In this document: positions 21,794 to 50,785 of the stretch, piece by piece
How the letters are laid out: the number at the start of each line of letters is the position of its first letter
Position numbering within the stretch: position 1 is the first letter of the stretch
Source of the DNA: an uncultured Candidatus Saccharibacteria bacterium
GTDB lineage: Bacteria > Patescibacteriota > Minisyncoccia > Minisyncoccales > 2-12-FULL-40-12
Assembly: GCA_964518135.1 (NCBI GenBank)
Contig: CAZFEY010000002.1
Coordinates: 1 to 53,003 of the forward strand
Length of the DNA: 53,003 bases
Reading direction: 5' to 3'
Notes under the pieces: model-generated
Seen by the model: only the letters and a program-made list of their open reading frames with translations
What the model was told of the DNA's origin: nothing
The model's database searches: none
Program-made: the position numbers and the translations under genes

Positions 21794-24700
21794 ATGATTA
21801 ACGCCAAGACCAAGTATTTTGGTAAGTCGCAGGTTGTCCTCGATCTGCCCAATTTGCTTACTATCCAGAAAGATAACTGGAAGAAGTTTTGGGACGAGGA
21901 TTTGAAAGAGCTGCTTACTGAAATCTCTCCGATTAGAGATTATAGCGGAAAAGAGCTTGAGCTTTGGTTTTTGGATTACAAAGTTGGAGAATCTAAGTAC
22001 AAGGATGATTTTGAGGCGAAGAATAATAACGATTCCTACGAAGCCCCTCTCCGCGTCAAAGTTAGGCTTGTTAATCTTAAGACTAAAGAAATAAAAGAAC
22101 AAGAAGTTTTCTTGACTGATTTCCCCGTTATGACAGAACGGGGGACTTTTATTGTAAATGGCGTGGAAAGAGTGGCCATATCTCAACTTATTCGCTCTCC
22201 GGGAGTTTTCTTTACCATGCAGGGTTCTGGCGGAAAGAATCATTTTGGAGCTAAGATTATTCCCAATAGAGGATCTTGGTTGGAATTTGAGACAGAGCCC
22301 TCCGGTTTTATAGGAGTGAAAATAGATAGAAAGCGTAAGGTTTCTGCGGTTTGTTTACTGAGAGCTTTAGGAGCAGCGGAAGGTAATCAATCGATTAAGG
22401 AATATTTCGCAGACGTCAATAATGGCGAAGTTGATTTTATCGAAGAAACATTGAAAAGAGACCCAGTGAATAACCAGTCAGATGCTTTAATCGAAATATA
22501 TCAAAGATTAAGACCTGGAGATATTGCAACTCCAGATACCGCCAAAGAGCTAATATGGAATATGTTTTTTAATTTTGAAAGGTACGATCTTTCAAAGGTG
22601 GGAAGGTGGAGAATGGCTAATAGGTTATCGGAACAAATGACTATGGGCAATAAAGTAGATAGCAAGAAGAGCAAGAAAAAAAATAATAATGACGAAAGCG
22701 CAGTGTATGGAGAGATTAAGCTAGGGGATAGAATTTTAAAACTGGAAGACATTATTGCGACCATCCGCGAAATTATTAGACTGAATAATGATCCAAACAG
22801 CAGGCCAGACGAAATAGATCATCTTGGTAATAGAAGGGTAAGAGTTATTAATGAGCTAGTCCAAAGTCGTCTTAGGGCAGGGTTGGTGCGTATGGCAAGA
22901 ATTTTGAAAGACAGAATGTCGACTCTCGATTTGAGCGTCTTGACTCCCGCGCAACTTATTAATCCGCGTCCCGTAATGGCTGTTGTAAAAGAATTTTTTA
23001 CTTCTTCACAGATCTGCCAATTTATGGATAACGAGAATCCATTGGCAGAGGTAGAGCACAAAAGAAGGTTATCAGCAACGGGTCCAGGGGGCTTAGCAAG
23101 AGAAAGAGCGGGATTTGAAGTAAGAGATGTGCAAGCGTCCCACTACGGGAGAATTTGTCCTATCCAAACACCAGAAGGACCAAATATTGGACTGGTTGGT
23201 CATTTGGCTAGCTTTGCCAAAATTAATCCGTATGGCTTTATAGAAACTCCATATTTTAAAGTACAAAACGGGAAGGTAACTTCAGAGATTAATTACCTTA
23301 ATGCCTATGAAGAAGAAAAATACAATATTGCTCCAGGTTCAGTTCGCATAGGTGAAAAAGGGACAATGCTAGATGAGCAGGTAGAAGCAAGAATAAAGAG
23401 TGAGCCAGGATTAATAAATAAAAACACAATCGACTTCATAGATGTCTCTACGGAACAATCGATTTCCGTTGCTACTAGCTGTATTCCTTTCTTGCAAAAT
23501 ACAGACGCTAACAGAGCCTTGATGGGATCAAATATGCAACGCCAGGCGGTCCCTCTCTTAAAGCCAAATCCACCGTTGGTTTGTACTGGCGTTGAAGAAA
23601 AAGTTGCCAAAAATTCTGGACAGATAGTTTTAGCAGAAGAAGACGGAACGATAATGGAAGTGGATGCAGGTCATGTCAAGATAAAATTCTCTAACAACTC
23701 TACTAAAACCTATACCCTCAAGACTTTTATAAGAACAAATCAATACACGTGTTTTCATCAAAAGCCAGTCATTGAGGTTGGTCAGAAAGTTAAGAAAGGA
23801 GATGTTCTGACAGACGGCGGAGCAATTACTGATGGTAGATTGGCCTTGGGTCAAAATGTTTTGGTTGCGTTTTTGCCTTGGCGCGGAGGAAACTTTGAAG
23901 ATGCTATTTTGATATCAGAGAGATTGATCAAGGATGATGTTTATAGCTCTGTGCATATAGAAAGTTTTAATTGCGACGTTAGAGAAACGAAACTAGGGCC
24001 AGAAATAACTACTTGCGATATTCCAAATGTTTCCGAAGAGAAATTAAAAGACCTTGACGAAGAAGGAATAGTTAGGGTTGGCGCCGAGGTTGGCCCTAAC
24101 GATATTTTAGTGGGTAAGATTTCGCCCAAAGGAGAAACAGATTTAACCGCCGAAGAGAGATTGTTGAGAGCGATCTTTGGAGAAAAGGCCAAAGAGGTAA
24201 AAGATTCTTCTTTGAGAATGGAGCATGGGAAAAGAGGTAGGATAGTTGGCGTAAAGGTGTTTTCTCGAGAGCTTGGCCATAGATTAGAGCCAGGTGTTAT
24301 AAAAAGAATTGAAGTTGAAGTTGCGGAGTTAAGAAAAGTTCAGGCTGGAGATAAATTGGCAGGCCGCCATGGAAACAAAGGAGTTGTTTCTAAAATACTA
24401 CCAGAAGAAGAGATGCCATTTTTGGAAGATGGTACTCCTGTCGATATTATTTTAAATCCACTCGGAGTAGTATCAAGAATGAATATAGGCCAAATTCTGG
24501 AGACTCACTTAGGTTTTGCCGCAAAGAAATTGGGATTTATTGCCATCACACCGTCTTTGGCTGGTGCCACAGAAGAAGATATTAAACGAGAATTAAAAGA
24601 GGCTGGCATACCCGAAGATGGAAAAGTAGCTCTATTCGACGGCAGAACGGGACTTCCGTTTCCAGAAAAGATCACTGTCGGTTCTATCTACATGATGAAG

Positions 24701-25051
24701 CTGATTCATATGGTAGAGGATAAAATTCATATGAGATCCATAGGTCCTTACTCCTTGATTACGCAACAACCATTGGGAGGAAAGGCTCAATTCGGAGGCC
24801 AGAGGTTCGGAGAGATGGAGGTATGGGCCTTGGAAGGTTATGGCGCGGCTCATACTTTGCAAGAAATGTTGACCATAAAATCGGACGATGTGCCAGGTCG
24901 AGCCGCTACTTACGAAGCAATTTTGAAAGGTGAACCAATCAAAACTCCTAATGTTCCAGCTTCTTTTAATCTTTTGGTGAATGAATTGAAGTCATTAGGG
25001 CTAGGAATAGAGGTTAAAGAGAGTCCCAACGAAAAGGAAATCGAGGATTAG
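21794..25051 (+). CDS. rpoB: DNA-directed RNA polymerase subunit beta
   Basis: 1085 aa with conserved blocks (GTFIVNGVERV, RRLSATGPGGL, NMQRQAVPL, GRHGNKGVVSKI, GGQRFGEMEVWALE). Confidence 0.98.
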   Translation: MINAKTKYFGKSQVVLDLPNLLTIQKDNWKKFWDEDLKELLTEISPIRDYSGKELELWFLDYKVGESKYKDDFEAKNNNDSYEAPLRVKVRLVNLKTKEIKEQEVFLTDFPVMTERGTFIVNGVERVAISQLIRSPGVFFTMQGSGGKNHFGAKIIPNRGSWLEFETEPSGFIGVKIDRKRKVSAVCLLRALGAAEGNQSIKEYFADVNNGEVDFIEETLKRDPVNNQSDALIEIYQRLRPGDIATPDTAKELIWNMFFNFERYDLSKVGRWRMANRLSEQMTMGNKVDSKKSKKKNNNDESAVYGEIKLGDRILKLEDIIATIREIIRLNNDPNSRPDEIDHLGNRRVRVINELVQSRLRAGLVRMARILKDRMSTLDLSVLTPAQLINPRPVMAVVKEFFTSSQICQFMDNENPLAEVEHKRRLSATGPGGLARERAGFEVRDVQASHYGRICPIQTPEGPNIGLVGHLASFAKINPYGFIETPYFKVQNGKVTSEINYLNAYEEEKYNIAPGSVRIGEKGTMLDEQVEARIKSEPGLINKNTIDFIDVSTEQSISVATSCIPFLQNTDANRALMGSNMQRQAVPLLKPNPPLVCTGVEEKVAKNSGQIVLAEEDGTIMEVDAGHVKIKFSNNSTKTYTLKTFIRTNQYTCFHQKPVIEVGQKVKKGDVLTDGGAITDGRLALGQNVLVAFLPWRGGNFEDAILISERLIKDDVYSSVHIESFNCDVRETKLGPEITTCDIPNVSEEKLKDLDEEGIVRVGAEVGPNDILVGKISPKGETDLTAEERLLRAIFGEKAKEVKDSSLRMEHGKRGRIVGVKVFSRELGHRLEPGVIKRIEVEVAELRKVQAGDKLAGRHGNKGVVSKILPEEEMPFLEDGTPVDIILNPLGVVSRMNIGQILETHLGFAAKKLGFIAITPSLAGATEEDIKRELKEAGIPEDGKVALFDGRTGLPFPEKITVGSIYMMKLIHMVEDKIHMRSIGPYSLITQQPLGGKAQFGGQRFGEMEVWALEGYGAAHTLQEMLTIKSDDVPGRAATYEAILKGEPIKTPNVPASFNLLVNELKSLGLGIEVKESPNEKEIED

Positions 25052-32487: not shown

Positions 32488-33052
<565 letters not shown>

Positions 33053-33088
33053 TTCATCTCAATTTGTTGTTTTTTATTGGATGACCTT

Positions 33089-33520
33089 TTAAACGTTATC
33101 TAAAATTTGTTCTAATTTTTCTTCAATTTCTTCTAGTTTTGATTTGTCTTGCTTTATTACTTCTTTCTGTTCTGTATGCGGCCTTGGTATTCTGGCTTGT
33201 CGGATTTTTACTCTTTTACTTATCTGTTTTAAAAATAAATACCGTAGTATATTTTTTTCTTCCTTTATCTTCCGTTCAATGTTTTTGATTTTTTCTGAAT
33301 CTGTACTAAAAAGCAACGATACCAAAGAAACCGCTTGTTTTTTGGGTTGTAAACTTGTTTTTATTGGCTTGGATAAATCCTTGTGAATAGGGTTTCTAGT
33401 TTCGATAAGAGAGCCTCCTTCTTCTTGGATTATGTTTTCTATTTTTTGCCCTAATGCTCTTGCCTCTTCTAATATTAGGTCAGCCGCTATTACATAGTTT
33501 AGTTCGTAGCGATAATTCAT
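33089..33520 (-). CDS. rpsF: 30S ribosomal protein S6 (with Lys/Glu-rich C-terminal tail)
   Basis: 'YELNYVI...EEGGSLI...ILRYLFLK' pattern and the conserved rpsF-ssb-rpsR order. The ORF track allows a start at 33535. Confidence 0.7.
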   Translation of the reverse strand: MNYRYELNYVIAADLILEEARALGQKIENIIQEEGGSLIETRNPIHKDLSKPIKTSLQPKKQAVSLVSLLFSTDSEKIKNIERKIKEEKNILRYLFLKQISKRVKIRQARIPRPHTEQKEVIKQDKSKLEEIEEKLEQILDNV

Positions 33521-33627
33521 ATTTTGGCTTAACATGAGAATTCCTTTTGCTGTTAAGATGGGTGTATTTTAGCAGTTTGTTATTGTTTTATCAAGCCCCG
33601 TGCAATTTCTTATTTTGAGGTTATCCT

Positions 33628-33664: not shown

Positions 33665-35095
33665 ATGAAAGTGAATCCGAATATATTTAGAGGTTATGAC
33701 ATTAGAGGTGTTGTGGATAAAGATTTAGACCCGGTTTTTGCAAACAATCTGGGTAAAGCTTTTGGCACATATCTTGTTCGTCGTGGAGTAGGACAGGCCA
33801 TTGTTGGTCACGATTGTCGCATGACCAGCCCTGAATACAGCAAAGAAGTTACAAAAGGATTAATTTGGGCAGGGGTTGATGTTGTCAATATTGGCTTGAA
33901 TCTTGTAGGGACTTTTTACTGGTCTCAATACTATTTTGAATGCAAGGGAGGTATTTATGTGACAGCCTCTCATAATCCTGCCGAATATAATGGTTTTAAA
34001 TTAGCTATTAATTTTTCAGACACTCTAGTTTCGGATGGTATTCAAGAATTAAGACAAATGATAGAGCAAGAAGATTTTATTAAGGGGAAACAAGAAGGGA
34101 ATATTAAATACCAGAACATACAGAATGAGTACGTTCAAGATTTGTTGGGGAGAATATCTTTAAGAAGAGGATTCAGGGTGGTTATTGATCCCGGTTTTTC
34201 TACGGCAGGAATTATTATTCCAACCTTATTAAAAATGGCTGGTTGTGATGTGGTCGAAAGTAATTGCAGTATTGATCCTTCTTTTCCTTTGGGTACACCA
34301 GATCCGATAGATGTGGAGGTGGCTAGAAGATTAAGCAAGAAAGTAATTGAAGAAAAGGCAGATATAGGGTTTTCTTATGATGCTGATGGAGATAGGATAG
34401 GCATTGTTGATGAAAAAGGGAATATTATCTGGAACGACGTATTGGTAGCTATTTTTGCCAAAGACGTTCTAAATACCCATCCAGGAGAAATTATCATGTA
34501 CAATACACTTTGCTCGAAAGTGGTCGAAGAGTCTATATTGCAATCTGGCGGCAGGCCGTTTATGTGGCGAACTGGACACTCTTTCCTTAAAAAGAAAAAT
34601 CAGGAGATTAAAGCAGCTTTCATTGGTGAATTATCTGGTCATTTCTTTTTCTCAGCAGATTTTTACAACCATGACGACGGAGCTTATTCTTCTTTGCGGT
34701 TATTGAAATATCTCGCAGATACCAACAGATCACTTTCAGAAGCTGTTGATGAATTACCAAAATATATATCTAGCCCAGAAATCAAAATTTATTGCGACGA
34801 CAACGCAAAAGTAGATTTAATAAAAAAAATCACCCCAGTGTTAAAGGCCGATTTTTCAGACGCAGAAATTATTGACGATGAAAGAGCGGGGGATGGCGTA
34901 AGAATAGATTTTCGAGATGGAATGTTTGTAATTCGTTATTCACAGAACGCACCCTATATGACAGTCAAGTTCGAAGGAAAAACACAAGAAAGATATGACC
35001 AATTGAGGATTTATATCGATAAACTCCTTCATTCCTATCCCGAAGTTGATTGGAATTCCAATATTAATCAGAATACAAAATTCTTATCTGATTAA
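33665..35095 (+). CDS. Phosphomannomutase/phosphoglucomutase
   Basis: 476 aa. Active-site 'TASHNPAEYNGFK', Mg loop 'FSYDADGDRIG', 'GELSGH'. Confidence 0.9.
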   Translation: MKVNPNIFRGYDIRGVVDKDLDPVFANNLGKAFGTYLVRRGVGQAIVGHDCRMTSPEYSKEVTKGLIWAGVDVVNIGLNLVGTFYWSQYYFECKGGIYVTASHNPAEYNGFKLAINFSDTLVSDGIQELRQMIEQEDFIKGKQEGNIKYQNIQNEYVQDLLGRISLRRGFRVVIDPGFSTAGIIIPTLLKMAGCDVVESNCSIDPSFPLGTPDPIDVEVARRLSKKVIEEKADIGFSYDADGDRIGIVDEKGNIIWNDVLVAIFAKDVLNTHPGEIIMYNTLCSKVVEESILQSGGRPFMWRTGHSFLKKKNQEIKAAFIGELSGHFFFSADFYNHDDGAYSSLRLLKYLADTNRSLSEAVDELPKYISSPEIKIYCDDNAKVDLIKKITPVLKADFSDAEIIDDERAGDGVRIDFRDGMFVIRYSQNAPYMTVKFEGKTQERYDQLRIYIDKLLHSYPEVDWNSNINQNTKFLSD

Positions 35096-47363: not shown

Positions 47364-47374
47364 TTTGGGGTGGA

Positions 47375-47458
47375 CCCGGTAGTAGATTTTGGACAGCCTC
47401 GCCACTTAAAGTGGCGAGTTATTTCGCGCGCAACGCGAGTCCAAAATTCACTACCGGG
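47375..47458 (+). repeat. Palindromic three-way-junction element, copy 1 (3' of uvrA)
   Basis: Arms CCCGGTAGTAGATTTTGGAC / GTCCAAAATTCACTACCGGG pair with 18 WC, 1 G.U and 1 mismatch. They enclose hairpins CTCGCCACT-taa-AGTGGCGAG and TCGCG-cgcaa-CGCGA. A T-run follows. Confidence 0.88.
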
Positions 47459-47522
47459 TGGACAATTTTTAAAATCAGTGATATAGCTAATTTAGCAAAT
47501 AAAAGAAAGGAGGTTCACCGAA

Positions 47523-47861
47523 ATGGGAACCACGAGCATCGGAAACCAGCCGGCAACACTAGCAGAAAAGGCAGTGAATACCGCCTTACATTCACTTAAA
47601 ATCCCACCTCTCTGCAAATTTTTAGGAGGAAGGGTCGTCAAAAGTATTTCGGCGCTGATAGTTGAAGGTCGTCGTGGGTTCAGGGTTACCTTTTTCAGTC
47701 CTAGTGGCCCGATGGACACTAGGTTAATCATCGTGGGTACTCGAGACCCTAAGACGCCTCCGATTTCCGAAGTTCTTTATATTCAGATAGAACAGAAGGT
47801 TGTCAAAAAGAGAGACAAGGTGCGTCGAAAGGTTATCGAGGCAATCGAGTCTTCGTTTTGA
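47523..47861 (+). CDS. Small hypothetical protein, paralog A (112 aa)
   Basis: AAGGAGG Shine-Dalgarno 8 nt upstream. Shares 'F.GGRVV' and a C-terminal 'KVRRKVIEAIESSF' block with paralog B. Has its own terminator. Confidence 0.65.
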   Translation: MGTTSIGNQPATLAEKAVNTALHSLKIPPLCKFLGGRVVKSISALIVEGRRGFRVTFFSPSGPMDTRLIIVGTRDPKTPPISEVLYIQIEQKVVKKRDKVRRKVIEAIESSF

Positions 47862-47986: not shown

Positions 47987-48027
47987 GAAAACAGTTTTTA
48001 AGATCAAAGATATTGGAGGAGAACAAG

Positions 48028-48375
48028 ATGACGGAACGGTTATCAACTTGGAATGGCGCACTAGTTCCTCGAGCTAGTAAGCTTGTCCACGCCGCTTTGG
48101 TGGCGTGTCGAGAAAGCCGTAAAGAATTTCCTGGTGGGAGAGTCGTGGGAAAGATCGAACCTATCAAATCGATAACGGAAGATGGTACTTACCGTCTTGA
48201 TTTCAGGGTTATTTTTTCTGCGTCAGATCCTCTATCGGACGATGTCAGATTGTTGACTTTAAAACGATATGGCGTGCCATTGCCACAGGTGATTAGCGTA
48301 GGGGTTTCGGACGACGATAGCAGAAGAAAAGTTCGTAGGGTAGTGAAAGAGTTAATAGAAGCGTCGTTTAGTTGA
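48028..48375 (+). CDS. Small hypothetical protein, paralog B (115 aa from the second Met)
   Basis: A GGAGGA Shine-Dalgarno precedes the ATG at 48028; the ORF-track start at 48013 overlaps the SD. 'FPGGRVV' and C-terminal 'KVRRVVKELIEASFS'. Confidence 0.65.
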   Translation: MTERLSTWNGALVPRASKLVHAALVACRESRKEFPGGRVVGKIEPIKSITEDGTYRLDFRVIFSASDPLSDDVRLLTLKRYGVPLPQVISVGVSDDDSRRKVRRVVKELIEASFS

Positions 48376-48396
48376 TAGCGTTATCGTGAAATCGGC

Positions 48397-48427
48397 CCCA
48401 TCGCAAAGCGGTGGGTTTCTTATTTTC
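48397..48427 (+). terminator. Rho-independent terminator
   Basis: CCCATCGC-aaa-GCGGTGGG followed by a T-rich tail. Confidence 0.7.
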
Positions 48428-48475
48428 GAGCACCGAGAGAAAACATTTATTCCCCGACGGAATAGTCTTTGAGAG

Positions 48476-48504
48476 TTGACACCAAAGCCCTATTTTATTA
48501 ATAT
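48476..48504 (+). promoter_or_regulatory. Sigma70 promoter TTGACA-17-TAATAT of groESL
   Basis: Hexamers read directly, immediately upstream of the CIRCE-like repeat. Confidence 0.6.
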
Positions 48505-48510
48505 AGAAAA

Positions 48511-48537
48511 TTGGCACTCGATCCATTCGATTGCCAA
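48511..48537 (+). promoter_or_regulatory. CIRCE-like inverted repeat (HrcA operator type)
   Basis: TTGGCACTC-N9-GATTGCCAA versus the consensus TTAGCACTC-N9-GAGTGCTAA. 8 of 9 positions are self-complementary. Confidence 0.7.
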
Positions 48538-48602
48538 CTCAGGATCGACGCTGAGTAGAGTCGAAGCGTCGAAGGTCACAATTTAATCATTAAAAAACGA
48601 AG

Positions 48603-48734
48603 CCCCGTTAGAAGTTTTAAGACAGAAAAAACAGGTTAGATTTTTTCTGCCACACAATAACGGGGAGACATAATTAATAGCAAGAGTCTGCTCGAAAATA
48701 ACGTAGCGTTATATAAGACAGACTTCTAACGGGG
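48603..48734 (+). repeat. Inverted-repeat leader module, copy 1 (groES leader)
   Basis: 5' arm CCCCGTTAGAAGT (48603-48615) and perfect complement ACTTCTAACGGGG (48722-48734). The last G is nt 1 of the groES GTG. 106-nt interior. Confidence 0.88.
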
Positions 48735-49024
48735 TGAAAATTAAACCATTATCGGATTATATTTTGATTGAGCCGATGAAAAAAGAAGAGAAAACCAAAA
48801 CTGGTATTTTGCTTCCCGACACAGCAGATAAGGAAAGGCCAGAGCAGGGCAAGGTTATTGCCGTGGGTCCCGGCAGAAAAACTTCGTCTGGGAAAGTTCT
48901 CCAAATGGATGTTAAACCCGGAGACAAAGTTTTGTTCACAAAGTACGGACCAAATGAAATAAAGGTTGAAGATAAAGAATATCTAATTGCAAAACAAGAA
49001 GATATATTGGCAATTATAGAATAA
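48734..49024 (+). CDS. groES: Co-chaperonin GroES
   Basis: 96 aa, 'MKIKPLSDYILIEP...KTKTGILLP...GKVIAVGPG'. GTG start. Confidence 0.95.
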   Translation: MKIKPLSDYILIEPMKKEEKTKTGILLPDTADKERPEQGKVIAVGPGRKTSSGKVLQMDVKPGDKVLFTKYGPNEIKVEDKEYLIAKQEDILAIIE

Positions 49025-49159
49025 TTGCAGATTAAAAATTAAAATCTCAAAATGCAAAACGATAATAATTTAGAATTCAAAATAGCAAAAAGAAAAATTC
49101 TCTTCGAATTTTAAACTTTTACTTTTGCGTTTTTGGTTTTGCGTTTGAGCGAAGCGAAT

Positions 49160-50785
49160 ATGGCTAAACAAATTATTTTTGATGAAGCTGCAAGAAAAAA
49201 ATTAAAATCCGGCATTGATCAAATTACCAATGCTGTAAAAGTCACCTTGGGTCCAAGAGCAAGGCATGTTGTTTTAGATAAGGGGTTTGGAGCTCCGGAG
49301 GTTTGTGATGACGGTGTGACTATTACCAAAGAAATTGAATTAAAAGACAAAGTAGAAAATCTGGGAGCCGAGATCATCAAAGAAGTTGCTGAAAAAACCA
49401 ATGATGTTGCTGGAGACGGGACAACTACGGCGGTTGTTTTGTCCAAGGCTCTTATAGAAGAAGGGTTAAAAAATGTAGCAGCTGGTGCCGATCCTTTATC
49501 TTTGAAAAGAGGAATAGAAAAGGGACTTGCTATTGTTGTGGATAATCTAAAGAAAATGGCAAAACCCATAAGCAAACAGGAAGAGATTGCGCAGGTAGCA
49601 ACTATTTCTGCTTTGAATCCGGAGATCGGAAATATGATCGCCGAAGTTTTCTCCGAAGTCGGCAAGGATGGCGTTATCACCGTTGAAGAATCAAAGAAAT
49701 TCGGTCTGGAAAAAGAGATCGTAAAGGGACTTCAGTTCGATAGAGGATATTTATCTCCTTACATGATTACGAATGCCGAAAGAATGGAGTCGGTTTTGGA
49801 GGATCCGTATATTTTAGTTACTGACAAGAAAATTTCAGCTTTAACTGAAATCGTTCCTATAATGGAAAAAATCGTGCAGACAGGAAATAAAGAACTGGTT
49901 ATTATAGCAGAAGAGGTGGAAGGAGAAGCTTTAGCTACCTTGGTCGTAAACAAGCTTCGTGGAGTATTTAATGCTTTGGCCATAAAGGCACCCGGCTTTG
50001 GTGATAGGAGAAAGGAAATGTTGCAAGATATTTCTATCGTTACCGGAGCCCAACTAATTTCGGAAGAGCTTGGTTTGAAATTGGAAAATGTAGAACTTAA
50101 ACAATTAGGCAGGGCAAGAAAGATTGTCTCTGAAAAAGAAAAAACAACTATAATTGATGGTCAGGGAGATAAGAAAGAGATTGATAAAAGAGTGCAGCAG
50201 ATCAGAAGTGAAATTACTCATACAGAATCTGATTTTGATAAAGAAAAACTGCAAGAAAGACTAGCGAAATTGGCCGGTGGGGTTGCTGTTATCAAGGTAG
50301 GAGCTGCCACGGAAGTTGAACAGAAAGCCAAGCAAAGAAAGACAGAAGATGCGTTGAACGCAACAAGAGCTGCCATAGAAGAGGGTGTTTTGCCTGGCGG
50401 CGGCACAGCCTTACTAAGATGTATAGGAGCGTTAGAAAATAATGATTTAACTGGGGATGAAAAAACGGGTCTGTCTATAATCAAAAAAGCCCTAGAAGCA
50501 CCAATTAAACAAATAGCTGAAAATGCTGGTATGGACGGAGCCATTGTGGTGCAGGAGGTAAAGAGCAAGGATGGTAATTATGGCTTTAATGCTCAAGATT
50601 TGAATTATGGAGATCTCATCGCGTTGGGTATTGTTGACCCTACAAAAGTTGTAAGATCTGCCTTGCAGCACGCAGCTTCTGCGGCCGCAATGTTGTTGAC
50701 TACAGAGGTGGTTATTGTTGACGAACCGGATGATGGCAAGAAAACCGACATGTCATCGGGCATGCCCGGAATGGGAGGTTATTAA
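49160..50785 (+). CDS. groEL: Chaperonin GroEL
   Basis: '[15 protein letters not shown]...AGDGTTTA...' with a GGM-like C-terminus 'MPGMGGY'. The ATG at 49160 is preferred over the ORF-track TTG at 49133. Confidence 0.97.

Follow-up and report, generated by a model that had tools for sequence, protein, structure and literature searches.

A probable MITE-like element in the start codon of groES in a Patescibacteria genome

The groES gene in the 53,003-nt stretch of DNA analysed here (the window) raises a simple question: how did a heat-shock gene come to start with GTG at the end of a long leader, with the first base of its start codon forming the last base of a perfect inverted repeat? The original prediction read the repeat and its interior as a possible thermosensor or switch acting on groES or, alternatively, as a palindromic insertion element. 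It was the alternative that was borne out, by empty sites, target duplications and more than 100 copies elsewhere. We conclude, with a probability of about 0.85, that the 132-nt module is a non-autonomous (MITE-like) copy in a family with the 13-bp repeat CCCCGTTAGAAGT and a 4-bp target-site duplication. The features of the groES locus are:

48476..48504, + strand, sigma-70-type promoter TTGACA-17-TAATAT (TTGACA at 48476-48481, 17 nt, TAATAT at 48499-48504), outside the mobile element
48511..48537, + strand, CIRCE-like inverted repeat TTGGCACTC-N9-GATTGCCAA, between the promoter and groES
48598..48602, + strand, decayed upstream target copy, CGAAG where ATGAA is expected, with the same decay in the relative L130
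48603..48734, + strand, probable non-coding mobile element of 132 bp (MITE-like) from the main subfamily (E = 4e-24 in an nhmmer search with the profile of that subfamily)
48603..48615, + strand, 5′ terminal inverted repeat CCCCGTTAGAAGT, perfect reverse complement of ACTTCTAACGGGG
48623..48649, + strand, A/T hairpin CAGAAAAAA-N9-TTTTTTCTG, 9-bp arms at 48623-48631 and 48641-48649
48658..48666, + strand, internal TAACGGGGA, an incomplete third copy of the repeat end that can pair alternatively with the 5′ arm
48722..48734, + strand, 3′ terminal inverted repeat ACTTCTAACGGGG, its final G being base 1 of the groES GTG
48734..49024, + strand, groES (96 aa), GTG start, an ORF with Pfam Cpn10

The perfect 13-bp repeat ending on the G of the groES GTG, the interior 9-bp A/T hairpin and an internal motif able to pair with the 5′ arm (TAACGGGG at 48658-48665) were all found as predicted. 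The A/T hairpin is kept across the subfamily, with two-sided changes preserving its pairs. The arm motif occurred five times in the window with two or fewer mismatches, compared to 0.94 occurrences expected, and none of 100 shuffles reached five. With the subfamily profile, nhmmer found exactly two copies of the element in the window, each co-oriented with its gene.

The promoter lay where it had been predicted to lie and, with 10 of 12 matches, was the best sigma-70-like site within 48300-49200; an equivalent promoter is found 5′ of groES in the relatives L130, L132, L133 and L153. The CIRCE-like repeat, likewise predicted, has three mismatches to the canonical TTAGCACTC-N9-GAGTGCTAA and is the sole match in the window at this level (three or fewer mismatches), where 0.01 would be expected by chance. 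Control of groESL by CIRCE and HrcA is a known system, in which the inverted repeat lies between the promoter and a groE or dnaK operon. The site at 48511-48537 shares with that system a related inverted repeat, the interval between promoter and groES, and a position that is kept in relatives, where the sequence reads TTAGCACTC-N9-nnnTGCTAA and the right arms are degenerate; it differs by its three mismatches. Both the promoter and the CIRCE-like operator predate the element in the leader and are separate from it.

Other genes here had been said to have clear Shine-Dalgarno sites. These were present in only a few; the majority of the long ORFs of the window have no Shine-Dalgarno sequence, and in many a TATAAT-like box lies 5-9 nt 5′ of the ATG. 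The 3′ arm as a Shine-Dalgarno mimic (UAACGGGGUGA compared to UAAGGAGGUGA) was ruled out by its zero spacing to the start codon. An outward promoter within the element is not supported, the best candidate in a promoter scan being a weak CTGCCA-16-CATAAT (9/12). A TATAAY 3′ of the internal GGGG is moderately conserved in the subfamily alignment, without a usable −35. Rfam gave no match at the gathering score in the whole window and, with E values up to 10, only chance-level microRNA and sRNA matches around both copies; ARAGORN found three ordinary tRNAs in the window and nothing else.

The origin of the GTG is most clearly seen by comparison with relatives in which the element is absent. In L153, L132, L154 and L133, groES has no element and starts ATGAAAATTAAAcc (ATGAAAATTAAACC) at the homologous codon, the empty sites reading ATGAAAATTAAA. 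As read from these alignments, the element entered the groES start codon at A/TGAA (the slash marking the junction), and the downstream TGAA together with the last G of the element gave the present GTG. The upstream TGAA copy has since decayed to CGAAG: L130 has the groES element and the decayed flank in common with the window, both reading ...AAAAAAC(A)CGAAG/CCCC. As the groES copy is without an exact target duplication, its insertion origin rests on the empty sites and on membership of the family. In GroEL identity, the window, L130 and the element-free L153 are roughly equidistant from one another, and the history of the insertion therefore needs a weak GroEL tree, or a loss or transfer event.

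The second copy, which had been predicted at ssb, was found on the minus strand at 32925-33052, where the insertion is better preserved:

32488..32925, − strand, ssb (145 aa), an ORF whose GTG start is rebuilt as at groES
32921..32924, − strand, downstream TGAA target duplication; bases 32924-32923 and the last G of the element (32925) make the ssb GTG (32925-32923)
32925..33052, − strand, second copy of the element, 128 bp, between rpsF and ssb (nhmmer, E = 1e-12)
33053..33056, − strand, upstream TGAA target duplication, which with base 33057 retains the original ATG of ssb

The orientation of this copy and its register to the GTG start are identical to those of the groES copy, and the mRNA strand at the upstream junction reads gagATGAA/CCCC... 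In L135, L136 and L137 the element is absent and ssb starts ATGAATTTAAAT or ATGAATCT; the empty site in L135 is ATGAATTTAAATAAAG. Excising the element and one TGAA from the ssb locus of the window predicts an empty site of this kind. The ssb insertion is an independent event of the same type, with both TGAA copies and the old ATG intact.

The original prediction proposed a search for further copies beyond the window. A scan of species genomes with a two-arm pattern, which demanded the arm sequence, matched at least 120 stretches of DNA. Nearly all of these carry a Patescibacteria/CPR label, and a genome typically has several copies; at least seven copies lie on contigs of one Nealsonbacteria genome and three lie within 8 kb in L108. 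Among the matches listed from species genomes there were 129 short copies of 114-141 bp, 99 of which have an exact target duplication of at least 4 nt and 106 of at least 3 nt. The targets overlap a start codon at 51 of these 106 sites, compared to 2% for random 4-mers (p about 1e-57). A start codon was counted where the ORF that it begins is 60 aa or longer and an in-frame stop lies no more than 15 codons 5′ of it; 62 sites qualify without the upstream-stop condition. There are two main registers of insertion: A/TGAA, which gives a GTG start (43 cases), and /TATG, in which the ATG is retained (26 cases). Targets of the TTGA class reconstruct to TTGACA-17-TATAAT promoters, placing other copies on the TTGAC of −35 boxes. 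No single 4-mer consensus accounts for the precision of insertion on both ATG and TTGAC. Transcription starts of leaderless genes were rejected as a general insertion target, since the excess of TANNNT 7-9 nt 5′ of the ATG was weak (17 at three offsets, 56 sites) and ssb and groES are clearly not leaderless.

The family has several of the characters by which MITEs are recognized. The window copies are small (132 and 128 bp) and non-coding, with no spanning ORF. The terminal inverted repeat is 13 bp and perfect in the groES copy, and the consensus stem over 29 copies is 14 bp. Target-site duplications are exact in 99 of the 129 copies, there are empty sites for both window copies, and copies recur at unrelated genome sites (two in this 53-kb window). 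Longer relatives of ∼282 bp, which may be the autonomous form, have the same ends, repeats and duplications, and contain an ORF for a GIY-YIG nuclease.

The Correia elements of Neisseria and the ERIC/IRU elements of enterobacteria are bacterial MITEs that are co-transcribed with neighbouring genes. The present family shares with them a length of ∼100-150 bp, terminal inverted repeats, a short duplication, a non-coding interior and many copies per genome, as well as a position in 5′ leaders and repeats that form a long RNA stem. It differs in lying on the start codon or the −35 hexamer itself in a fixed register, in regenerating that signal from its own last base and the duplication (4 bp, not TA), and in being spread across many CPR lineages; in addition, the sole coding relatives found carry a GIY-YIG nuclease and not a DDE transposase. 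The palindromic elements of Rickettsia are likewise small palindromic mobile units tolerated in the genes of reduced genomes, but they lie in frame within coding regions and are translated, whereas this family lies at the start codon, outside the host protein. A full-text literature search, which covered the repeat sequence, CPR MITEs, GIY-YIG proteins with inverted repeats or duplications, UPF0213 and IS1380/piggyBac but did not reach most subscription journals, returned no description of the family. It is a large family of the ultra-small CPR bacteria, and apparently an undescribed one. Spread by phages was rejected, as neither size class matched in a viral contig collection.

The ∼282-bp versions encode one gene only, a GIY-YIG nuclease of roughly 93 aa; the 93-aa ORF of the element in L033, where a short copy and a coding copy lie ∼470 bp apart, matches Pfam GIY-YIG (PF01541) with E = 2e-17. 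No coding copy was found within the 53-kb window. The ORF begins on the ATG of the target, so that MNPVRS is encoded by ATG plus the left repeat, and it stops at the TAA in the right repeat, 4 nt 5′ of the rebuilt GTG. There are at least 956 related protein clusters. Most of the 48 related sequences examined have a PVRS or PVRN motif at or near the N-terminus (12 begin exactly MNPVRS/N), and most end ...FFFAxDF or ...GF. The element of L138 is flanked by a HisF-like gene (Pfam His_biosynth) on one side and by a GATase-family (HisH-like) gene on the other, and the 212-aa HisH-like ORF starts on the rebuilt GTG, VKKNPEIAIIDYG. A metagenome scan gave at least 120 further stretches, and in 51 of the 120 listed a reading frame of 80 codons or more stays open up to the TAA of the repeat; among the matches listed, the duplications fall in the same classes (TGAA 12, TTGA 8, TATG 5).

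The closest solved relatives of the nuclease by sequence are the UPF0213 proteins BH0048 (PDB 1zg2, E = 6e-6) and EF2693 (PDB 1ywl, E = 5e-3). It resembles these stand-alone GIY-YIG proteins in being a single domain of ∼100 aa, although identity is low, and the match to NCBIfam TIGR01453 is below the cut-off of that model. GIY-YIG homing endonucleases are encoded by free-standing genes, such as the seg genes of phage T4, and are also carried by group I introns. The coding relatives have the same catalytic domain, and as in the homing genes a selfish gene has the nuclease as its sole product and lies at or between host genes that it does not destroy. Homing genes are not known to have terminal inverted repeats or to make a target duplication, and they enter one cognate site via repair. 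In contrast, this family occupies many unrelated sites and has 13-bp repeats, 4-bp duplications and non-coding derivatives, and its protein is a bare catalytic domain of ∼93 aa with no separate DNA-binding domain.

These observations suggest a way in which the family could move. The GIY-YIG nuclease would mobilize the family, with the short copies at groES and ssb being mobilized in trans. By landing on a start codon, an element without its own promoter or ribosome-binding site would borrow the signals of the host gene, which would restart translation at the G-TG formed by the insertion. On the broadest reading, which we judge about as likely as not, the family would be a prokaryotic transposon of a new class, mobilized by a GIY-YIG nuclease of ∼93 aa with no further domain, and the ∼282-bp autonomous form would be the smallest self-mobilizing DNA element known. 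Such an element would have no expression signals of its own; it would target start codons (A/TGAA and /TATG) and −35 boxes (TTGAC), borrow the ATG, ribosome-binding site and promoter of the host and hand translation back through a TAA-CGGG-GTG stop-restart in the right repeat. Certain of its short derivatives, the groES copy among them, would by now be fixed in CPR mRNA leaders and under constraint there.

The GIY-YIG gene could instead be a passenger, as in an ordinary MITE moved by a DDE transposase of, for example, the IS1380/piggyBac type. Terminal inverted repeats with 4-5-bp duplications would fit this, and the ends of the family presumably resemble piggyBac and IS1380 termini (4-bp duplications, ends beginning CC); the likeness would extend to 4-5-bp duplications and ends starting with a run of C, and those two families appear to be treated together in the literature. 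However, in about 1 Mb of loci no DDE/DDD transposase was found between or beside the repeats: none of the repeat pairs 0.3-4 kb apart encloses a transposase gene, the lone arms in the loci examined adjoin ordinary genes, and an ORF beside a lone arm in L074 had no Pfam match. The sole ORF found inside the repeats is that of the GIY-YIG nuclease, and the repeats themselves encode its first and last residues. Nor are the targets TTAA. The duplications are TGAA, TATG, TTGA, TAAA and others, with exactly TTAA in 0 of 129 and TTAAA in one, and membership of the piggyBac/IS1380 group is not claimable on such targets and with no DDE transposase found. We consider movement by a DDE transposase improbable. 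It is still less probable, to the point of being very unlikely, that the two arms are paired DNA operator sites for a regulator, acting by looping or as a roadblock, rather than transposon ends. The arm sequence is highly conserved across distant lineages and the −35 boxes and start codons that many copies adjoin are places from which an operator could act effectively, but arm conservation is partly built in by the scan pattern, no candidate regulator was found, and the element came in as one inserted unit, as is shown by the target duplications and the empty sites.

In groES, the element would be transcribed inside the putatively CIRCE-controlled leader. In its fold of lowest predicted energy (−75.2 kcal/mol, z = −6.6), this leader has the terminal stem closed. 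To open positions −12 to +6 of groES would by prediction take 22.8 kcal/mol at 10°C, 16.8 at 37°C and 14.7 at 45°C, compared to 3.5-7.6 kcal/mol in element-free relatives, and the modelled probability of an open start region is about 1e-12 at 37°C and at most 1e-10 across 10-45°C. At equilibrium, the 14-16-bp stem would shut the groES start codon. In this equilibrium model, the start region is too firmly closed to explain the translation of two presumably essential genes. With the start codon closed in the stem, translation needs the stem to be opened or never to form. Our best guess is a kinetic route in which the nascent 5′ arm would pair first with the internal TAACGGGG, leaving the 3′ arm and the GUG free for a time; the main alternative would be processing of the stem by a nuclease. 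When the 3′ arm was held free, the 5′ arm paired with the internal TAACGGGG in 27 of 29 subfamily copies. The original prediction of two mutually exclusive structures is upheld to this extent, but the alternative fold is 7-20 kcal/mol less stable than the terminal stem (16.9 in the groES copy). The natural orientation of the element is predicted to be cheaper to open than the flipped one (13.2 versus 18.5 kcal/mol, p = 3e-6).

Between the window and L130, the groES elements are identical at 119 of 130 aligned positions (91.5%). In the same genome pair, the four-fold sites of groEL are only 36% identical and the third codon positions of groES, groEL, uvrA and two neighbouring genes 47-60% identical. 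Since this identity is found where synonymous sites are near saturation, the groES copy is under constraint in the leader, as judged from the sequences of one orthologous pair (the window and L130); evolution as a regulator is not implied. An orthologue identity of 91.5% is not expected of a decaying selfish insertion. The next-best non-orthologous copies have interiors that are 77% identical. The spacer between the M48 and Zn-ribbon genes is not conserved between the window and L130, so the conservation is local to groES. Recent recombination was rejected as the source of the similarity, because between the two conserved non-coding blocks the identity of the groES coding sequence drops to 82%, and that of its third positions to 60%. 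The conserved stems have 6 G-U and 6 A-C mispairs, numbers that do not distinguish selection on the RNA strand from selection on a DNA palindrome.

What the element now does at groES is a separate matter from how it came there. Thermometers that occlude initiation regions are established, groES is a heat-shock gene and its start codon lies in a stem, and the original prediction accordingly envisaged a thermosensor and proposed folding the leader at several temperatures. An RNA thermometer, in which heat shock would melt the 13-bp stem and expose the start codon, now appears exceedingly improbable. The opening cost falls merely from 22.8 to 14.7 kcal/mol over 10-45°C, with the start region closed throughout, whereas known thermometers are weak, imperfect helices; the stem is neither a weak melting helix of the ROSE or fourU kind nor matched by any Rfam family; and ssb and housekeeping genes have the same stem. 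Less improbable, though still unlikely, is a processing site at which a double-strand-specific RNase cuts the terminal stem, giving a near-leaderless groES mRNA to be read from its 5′-proximal GUG by leaderless-adapted ribosomes. RNase III cleavage has been reported for Correia elements, a perfect stem of 14-16 bp abuts the start codon, and cleavage would solve the problem of start-codon accessibility. The scarcity of Shine-Dalgarno sites in the window genes and the TATAAT-like boxes close to many of their ATGs also suggest that leaderless or near-leaderless initiation is frequent. However, 14-16 bp is short for a classical RNase III substrate, and conservation of the interior would then be needless, yet the interior is conserved. 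A somewhat better, but still tentative, possibility is that the element has been exapted as a translational gate for post-transcriptional control of groES, moving between the terminal stem (closed) and the two-hairpin fold (open). This is compatible with a mobile-element origin, as it concerns the present role. The constraint on the orthologous pair, the lower identity of the non-orthologous interiors, the restriction of the conservation to groES, the alternative pairing conserved in 27 of 29 copies and the lower opening cost of the natural orientation are all in its favour. Against it, the closed fold is favoured over the open one by 16.9 kcal/mol at groES, the equal numbers of G-U and A-C mispairs give no sign of selection on the RNA strand, and only two orthologous sequences are at hand to judge constraint. 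The same architecture stands before ssb and many unrelated genes and so did not evolve for heat-shock control. The element may nevertheless have a lasting role, or be held by constraint, in the groES leader.

For the biology of these bacteria, the reading as a MITE-like insertion means that one event accounts for the GTG start of groES, its missing ribosome-binding site and its long leader, all of which are scars, and it cautions against taking the groES stem for a purpose-built heat sensor. The element is very widespread in the reduced genomes of CPR/Patescibacteria, with at least 120 stretches in each of two scans and at least 956 related protein clusters, and its landing sites are the start codons and −35 boxes that punctuate genes, signals that it rebuilds with the last base of its own sequence. 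Such insertions also bear on annotation, because they leave as by-products many of the GTG starts of these genomes and many of the ‘GIY-YIG nuclease family protein’ calls whose reading frame runs into the following gene. The start codons of groES and ssb, both presumably essential, are predicted to be locked in stems, which poses a testable question about initiation where Shine-Dalgarno sequences are mostly absent. If the GIY-YIG protein does mobilize the family, its nuclease fold would join the short list of transposase types, the family would show how small an autonomous mobile element can be, and a 282-bp element with one 93-aa protein would provide a simple experimental system.

The leader of groES contains a promoter, a CIRCE-like operator and the 132-bp element with its terminal inverted repeat, as the original prediction had described, and the ssb copy mentioned there is present in the same register relative to its GTG. 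The features of the window are as follows.

48476–48504, + strand: sigma-70-like promoter TTGACA-17-TAATAT (10 of 12 matches, the best promoter-like site of the region)
48511–48537, + strand: CIRCE-like repeat TTGGCACTC-N9-GATTGCCAA (three mismatches; the sole such site in the window, with 0.01 expected by chance)
48603–48615, + strand: 5′ arm of the element, CCCCGTTAGAAGT (a perfect 13-bp inverted repeat with the 3′ arm)
48722–48734, + strand: 3′ arm of the element, ACTTCTAACGGGG
48734–49024, + strand: groES reading frame, GTG start, first base being the last G of the 3′ arm
33089–33535, − strand: rpsF, upstream neighbour of the second copy
32925–33052, − strand: second element copy, between rpsF and ssb, in the same orientation to its gene as the groES copy
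32488–32925, − strand: ssb, GTG start, first base being the last G of the second copy

The A/T hairpin and the internal TAACGGGG described for the groES copy were both found. Since the element is positioned downstream of the promoter and CIRCE-like operator both in the window and in L130, a comparison locus from another genome, it should be transcribed within the groES leader; the operator is real and distinct from the element. Arm motifs with up to two mismatches occur five times in the window (0.94 expected). A subfamily profile search of the window gave exactly two copies, at groES (E = 4e-24) and ssb (E = 1e-12), and neither matched any Rfam family. On the mRNA strand the ssb copy reads gagATGAA|CCCCGTTAGAAGT...ACTTCTAATGGGG|TGAATTTAAAT; its A/T hairpin is followed by an internal AACGGGGA, with the remaining interior being unlike that of the groES copy.

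Other sequences in the window were also recorded. The motif (A/G)AAGGTC(G/A) is present at 48563–48602 and in the groES leaders of L130 and two further comparison loci (L132 and L153), as well as in the rpsF–ssb spacers of the window, L136 and L137, where it follows the rpsF stop codon. The CIRCE-like repeat of relatives has this motif as its 9-nt spacer; in the window the motif precedes the element by 25 nt, in a segment resembling a decayed duplicate of the ancestral CIRCE region. A further 13-nt inverted repeat, also perfect (TTATTTTCGAGCA / TGCTCGAAAATAA, 48420–48432 and 48689–48701), has one arm immediately 5′ of the groES promoter and the other in the element interior, and is probably due to chance as it is not conserved in L130. 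The mini-hairpin CCCCGTTATGACAGAACGGGG at 22123–22143, inside a 1090-aa ORF (21794–25051), has the same 7-nt core as the element ends and is probably chance or a remnant. Two small paralogous ORFs on the + strand (112 aa, 47523–47861; 120 aa, 48013–48375) lie after a tRNA-Leu (47374–47460) and have similar C-termini (...RRKVIEAIESSF and ...RRKVRRVVKELIEASFS), with no Pfam hit on record; L130 has a single 124-aa ORF, without a Pfam hit, between uvrA and groES. The view that other genes here have clear Shine-Dalgarno sequences held for only a few: most genes of the window, including most long ORFs, lack one, and many have a TATAAT-like box 5–9 nt before the ATG (for example at 33665, 1144 on the − strand, 12959 and 25101). 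This pattern suggests frequent leaderless or near-leaderless mRNAs in the source organism.

The proposal that the module is a palindromic insertion element proved right, with empty sites in relatives at both genes. Deleting the ssb element together with one TGAA predicts ...ATGAATTTAAATAAAG, and element-free relatives (SSB 81–87% identical) have ...ATGAATTTAAATAAAG or ATGAATCT..., with an ATG start. The window is from a CPR bacterium of Rifle groundwater that is close to Nealsonbacteria. At groES, its syntenic relatives L153, L132, L154 and L133 have no element and the homologous codon starts ATGAAAATTAAAcc; in L130 the site is occupied by the element and has the same decayed upstream flank as in the window (...AAAAAAC(A)CGAAG|CCCC). 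The empty sites of the relatives, and the element and flank shared with L130, show that the groES target was A|TGAA within the start codon, that TGAA was duplicated, and that the present GTG is the last G of the element plus the TG of the duplicated target.

Extra copies were sought in related genomes by scanning one genome per species for two arms 90–120 nt apart, and at least 120 DNA stretches with both arms were found. Of the stretches listed, almost all were labelled Patescibacteria/CPR, often with several copies per genome, and the carriers belonged to many lineages: Nealson-, Staskawicz-, Falkow-, Kaiser-, Uhr-, Taylor-, Wildermuth- and Jorgensenbacteria and Kazan. A few carrier contigs are labelled Gammaproteobacteria, Syntrophobacter, delta proteobacterium or Elusimicrobiota (e.g. 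L016, L030, L036, L045, L061 and L073), and these could be mis-binned CPR or real spread beyond it. Nested copies, tandem arms and 62–102-bp versions with the same ends also occur (L081 2256–2521, L030 893–1054, L019 6014–6091 and L057 2216–2277).

An exact flanking duplication of at least 4 nt was present in 99 of 129 copies from the stretches listed: TGAA/TTCA in 30, TTGA/TCAA in 16 and TAAA/TTTA in 11 (reverse complements pooled), TATG in 23, TATA in 3 and rarer types in 16. Empty sites were reconstructed for the 106 copies whose duplication spans at least 3 nt; 51 overlapped a start codon, defined as opening an ORF of at least 60 aa with an in-frame stop within 15 codons upstream, compared to 2% for random 4-mers (p ~1e-57); without the upstream-stop condition, 62 qualify. 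There are two recurrent registers, A|TGAA, which becomes a GTG start (43 cases), and |TATG, where the ATG is kept (26 cases). In the TTGA class the reconstructed sites are textbook promoters, such as TTGACA-17-TATAAT in L041, L067, L094 and L129, cut on the −35 hexamer, and the downstream duplicate preserves the whole hexamer. No single 4-mer consensus covers the start-codon and −35 targets. These positions are too sharp for selection alone, and the targeting of start codons and −35 boxes is therefore real. Carriers of the −35 class (L015, L039, L041, L044, L067, L094, L129 and others) include short and coding copies alike, inserted on the TTGAC of TTGACA-17-TATAAT, with the duplicated TTGA or CTTG keeping the downstream promoter intact.

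Odd-sized repeat pairs revealed a coding relative in L033 (Jorgensenbacteria), a 282-bp element with TGAA flanks and a single 93-aa ORF matching the Pfam GIY-YIG domain (E = 2e-17). The ORF takes its first codon from the ATG of the target and continues across the left repeat (ATG AA|C CCC GTT AGA AGT = M N P V R S); its last codons, GAC TTC TAA, lie in the right repeat and end 4 nt short of the rebuilt GTG. At least 956 related clusters of 85–109 aa were retrieved by a protein search. Most of the 48 sequences read have the repeat-coded PVRS/PVRN at or near the N-terminus (12 exactly MNPVRS/N, others MSPVRS, or ..INPVRSQ behind a short extension), and most end in ...KNRLKFFFAxDF or ...GF; other related proteins start at an internal ATG ∼20 nt into the element (MWYVYVL). 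By sequence, the nearest proteins of solved structure are 1zg2 and 1ywl, stand-alone GIY-YIG proteins of the UPF0213 group without assigned function.

L138, from Hainich groundwater, has the element with a HisF-like gene (Pfam His_biosynth) on one side and a GATase-family (HisH-like) gene on the other, joined as ...ATGAA|CCCC...GGGG|TGAAAAAAAATCC, and the HisH-like ORF (VKKNPEIAIIDYG..., 212 aa) begins at the G-TG. Start-site annotation beside these elements is likely to be systematically wrong, because gene callers extend the host gene past the rebuilt GTG into the nuclease ORF, giving an 11-nt overlap (L138 2772–2782 and L143 1692–1702). A metagenome scan for arms 248–276 nt apart gave at least 120 stretches; in 51 of the 120 listed, a frame open for 80 codons or more terminates on the TAA of the repeat, and the coding copies fall in the same target classes as the short ones (TGAA 12, TTGA 8, TATG 5). 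In ∼1 Mb of loci, no DDE transposase turned up within the repeats or next to them, neither size class was found in a viral contig collection, and the window has no coding copy. We suggest that the GIY-YIG nuclease moves the family and that the short copies at groES and ssb would be its non-autonomous derivatives. Landing on a start codon would lend the signal-less nuclease gene the promoter, ribosome-binding site and ATG of the host, and the stop-restart arrangement would keep the host gene alive.

The groES elements of the window and L130 share 119 of 130 aligned positions (91.5%), with three differences in the 3′ 70 nt. In these two genomes, four-fold degenerate sites of groEL show 36% identity; for third codon positions the value is 60% in groES and 47–52% in groEL, uvrA and two genes downstream, and a different spacer does not align at all. 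The two copies have common derived features absent from other members, with the next-best copies being 77% identical in their interiors. Because of these derived features, and of the 91.5% identity set against low silent-site identity, the copies are orthologous and constrained; such identity does not fit a passive scar. We read this as constraint that arose after insertion, with the leader having to hold a fold that permits translation, and these copies may have a genuine regulatory role. The GroEL of the element-free L153 is as similar to that of the window and of L130 as the latter two are to each other, so the order of events is not fully settled. The groES–groEL spacer (49025–49159, 135 nt), an A/T-rich long imperfect palindrome with arms 74–81% complementary, is common only to the window and L130, at 83% identity, the spacers of other relatives being unrelated and 22–149 nt long. 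It has no repeat elsewhere in the window and could be an old insertion or an element of mRNA processing or stability.

In the minimum-energy fold of the groES leader (−75.2 kcal/mol, z = −6.6) the terminal stem is closed over the start codon. The consensus of 29 subfamily members has a 14-bp terminal stem and a 12-bp A/T hairpin, with pair-keeping changes on both sides; G-U mispairs are as frequent as A-C mispairs in the stems, so selection on RNA and on a DNA palindrome are not separated. For the groES copy, the predicted cost of opening positions −12 to +6 falls from 22.8 kcal/mol at 10 °C to 16.8 at 37 °C and to 14.7 at 45 °C, compared to 3.5–7.6 kcal/mol (10 to 37 °C) in element-free relatives. 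The thermosensor that had been proposed is thus not supported, as the start region stays closed across the temperatures folded and a melting RNA thermometer is thermodynamically implausible. The proposed alternative pairing of the 5′ arm is conserved: when the 3′ arm is kept unpaired, 27 of 29 copies fold with the 5′ arm joined to the internal TAACGGGG. This fold is weaker by 12.3 kcal/mol on average and by 16.9 kcal/mol in the groES copy, and could serve only as a transient co-transcriptional state. Predicted opening is cheaper in the natural than in the flipped orientation (13.2 versus 18.5 kcal/mol, p = 3e-6), which fits selection on orientation. Translation of groES and ssb may depend on transient folding, or on nuclease cutting of the stem followed by near-leaderless initiation; where the old ATG survives, as at ssb, ribosomes may instead enter the 5′ arm and unmask the GUG.

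The element qualifies as a MITE by its size, its inverted repeats and target duplication, the empty sites and the presence of multiple copies, and behaves in the leader much like Correia and ERIC elements. It differs from all of these in that its family is placed precisely at start codons and −35 boxes, uses its own terminal base to restore the signal and is spread over CPR lineages, and in that the sole coding relatives found carry a GIY-YIG nuclease whose ends are repeat-coded. Homing endonucleases are known selfish GIY-YIG genes and have neither repeats nor duplications; we know of no insertion-sequence family with a GIY-YIG enzyme. A full-text literature search of incomplete coverage found no description of the family. 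The interest of the finding is in what is apparently a large and undescribed family of elements that target start codons.
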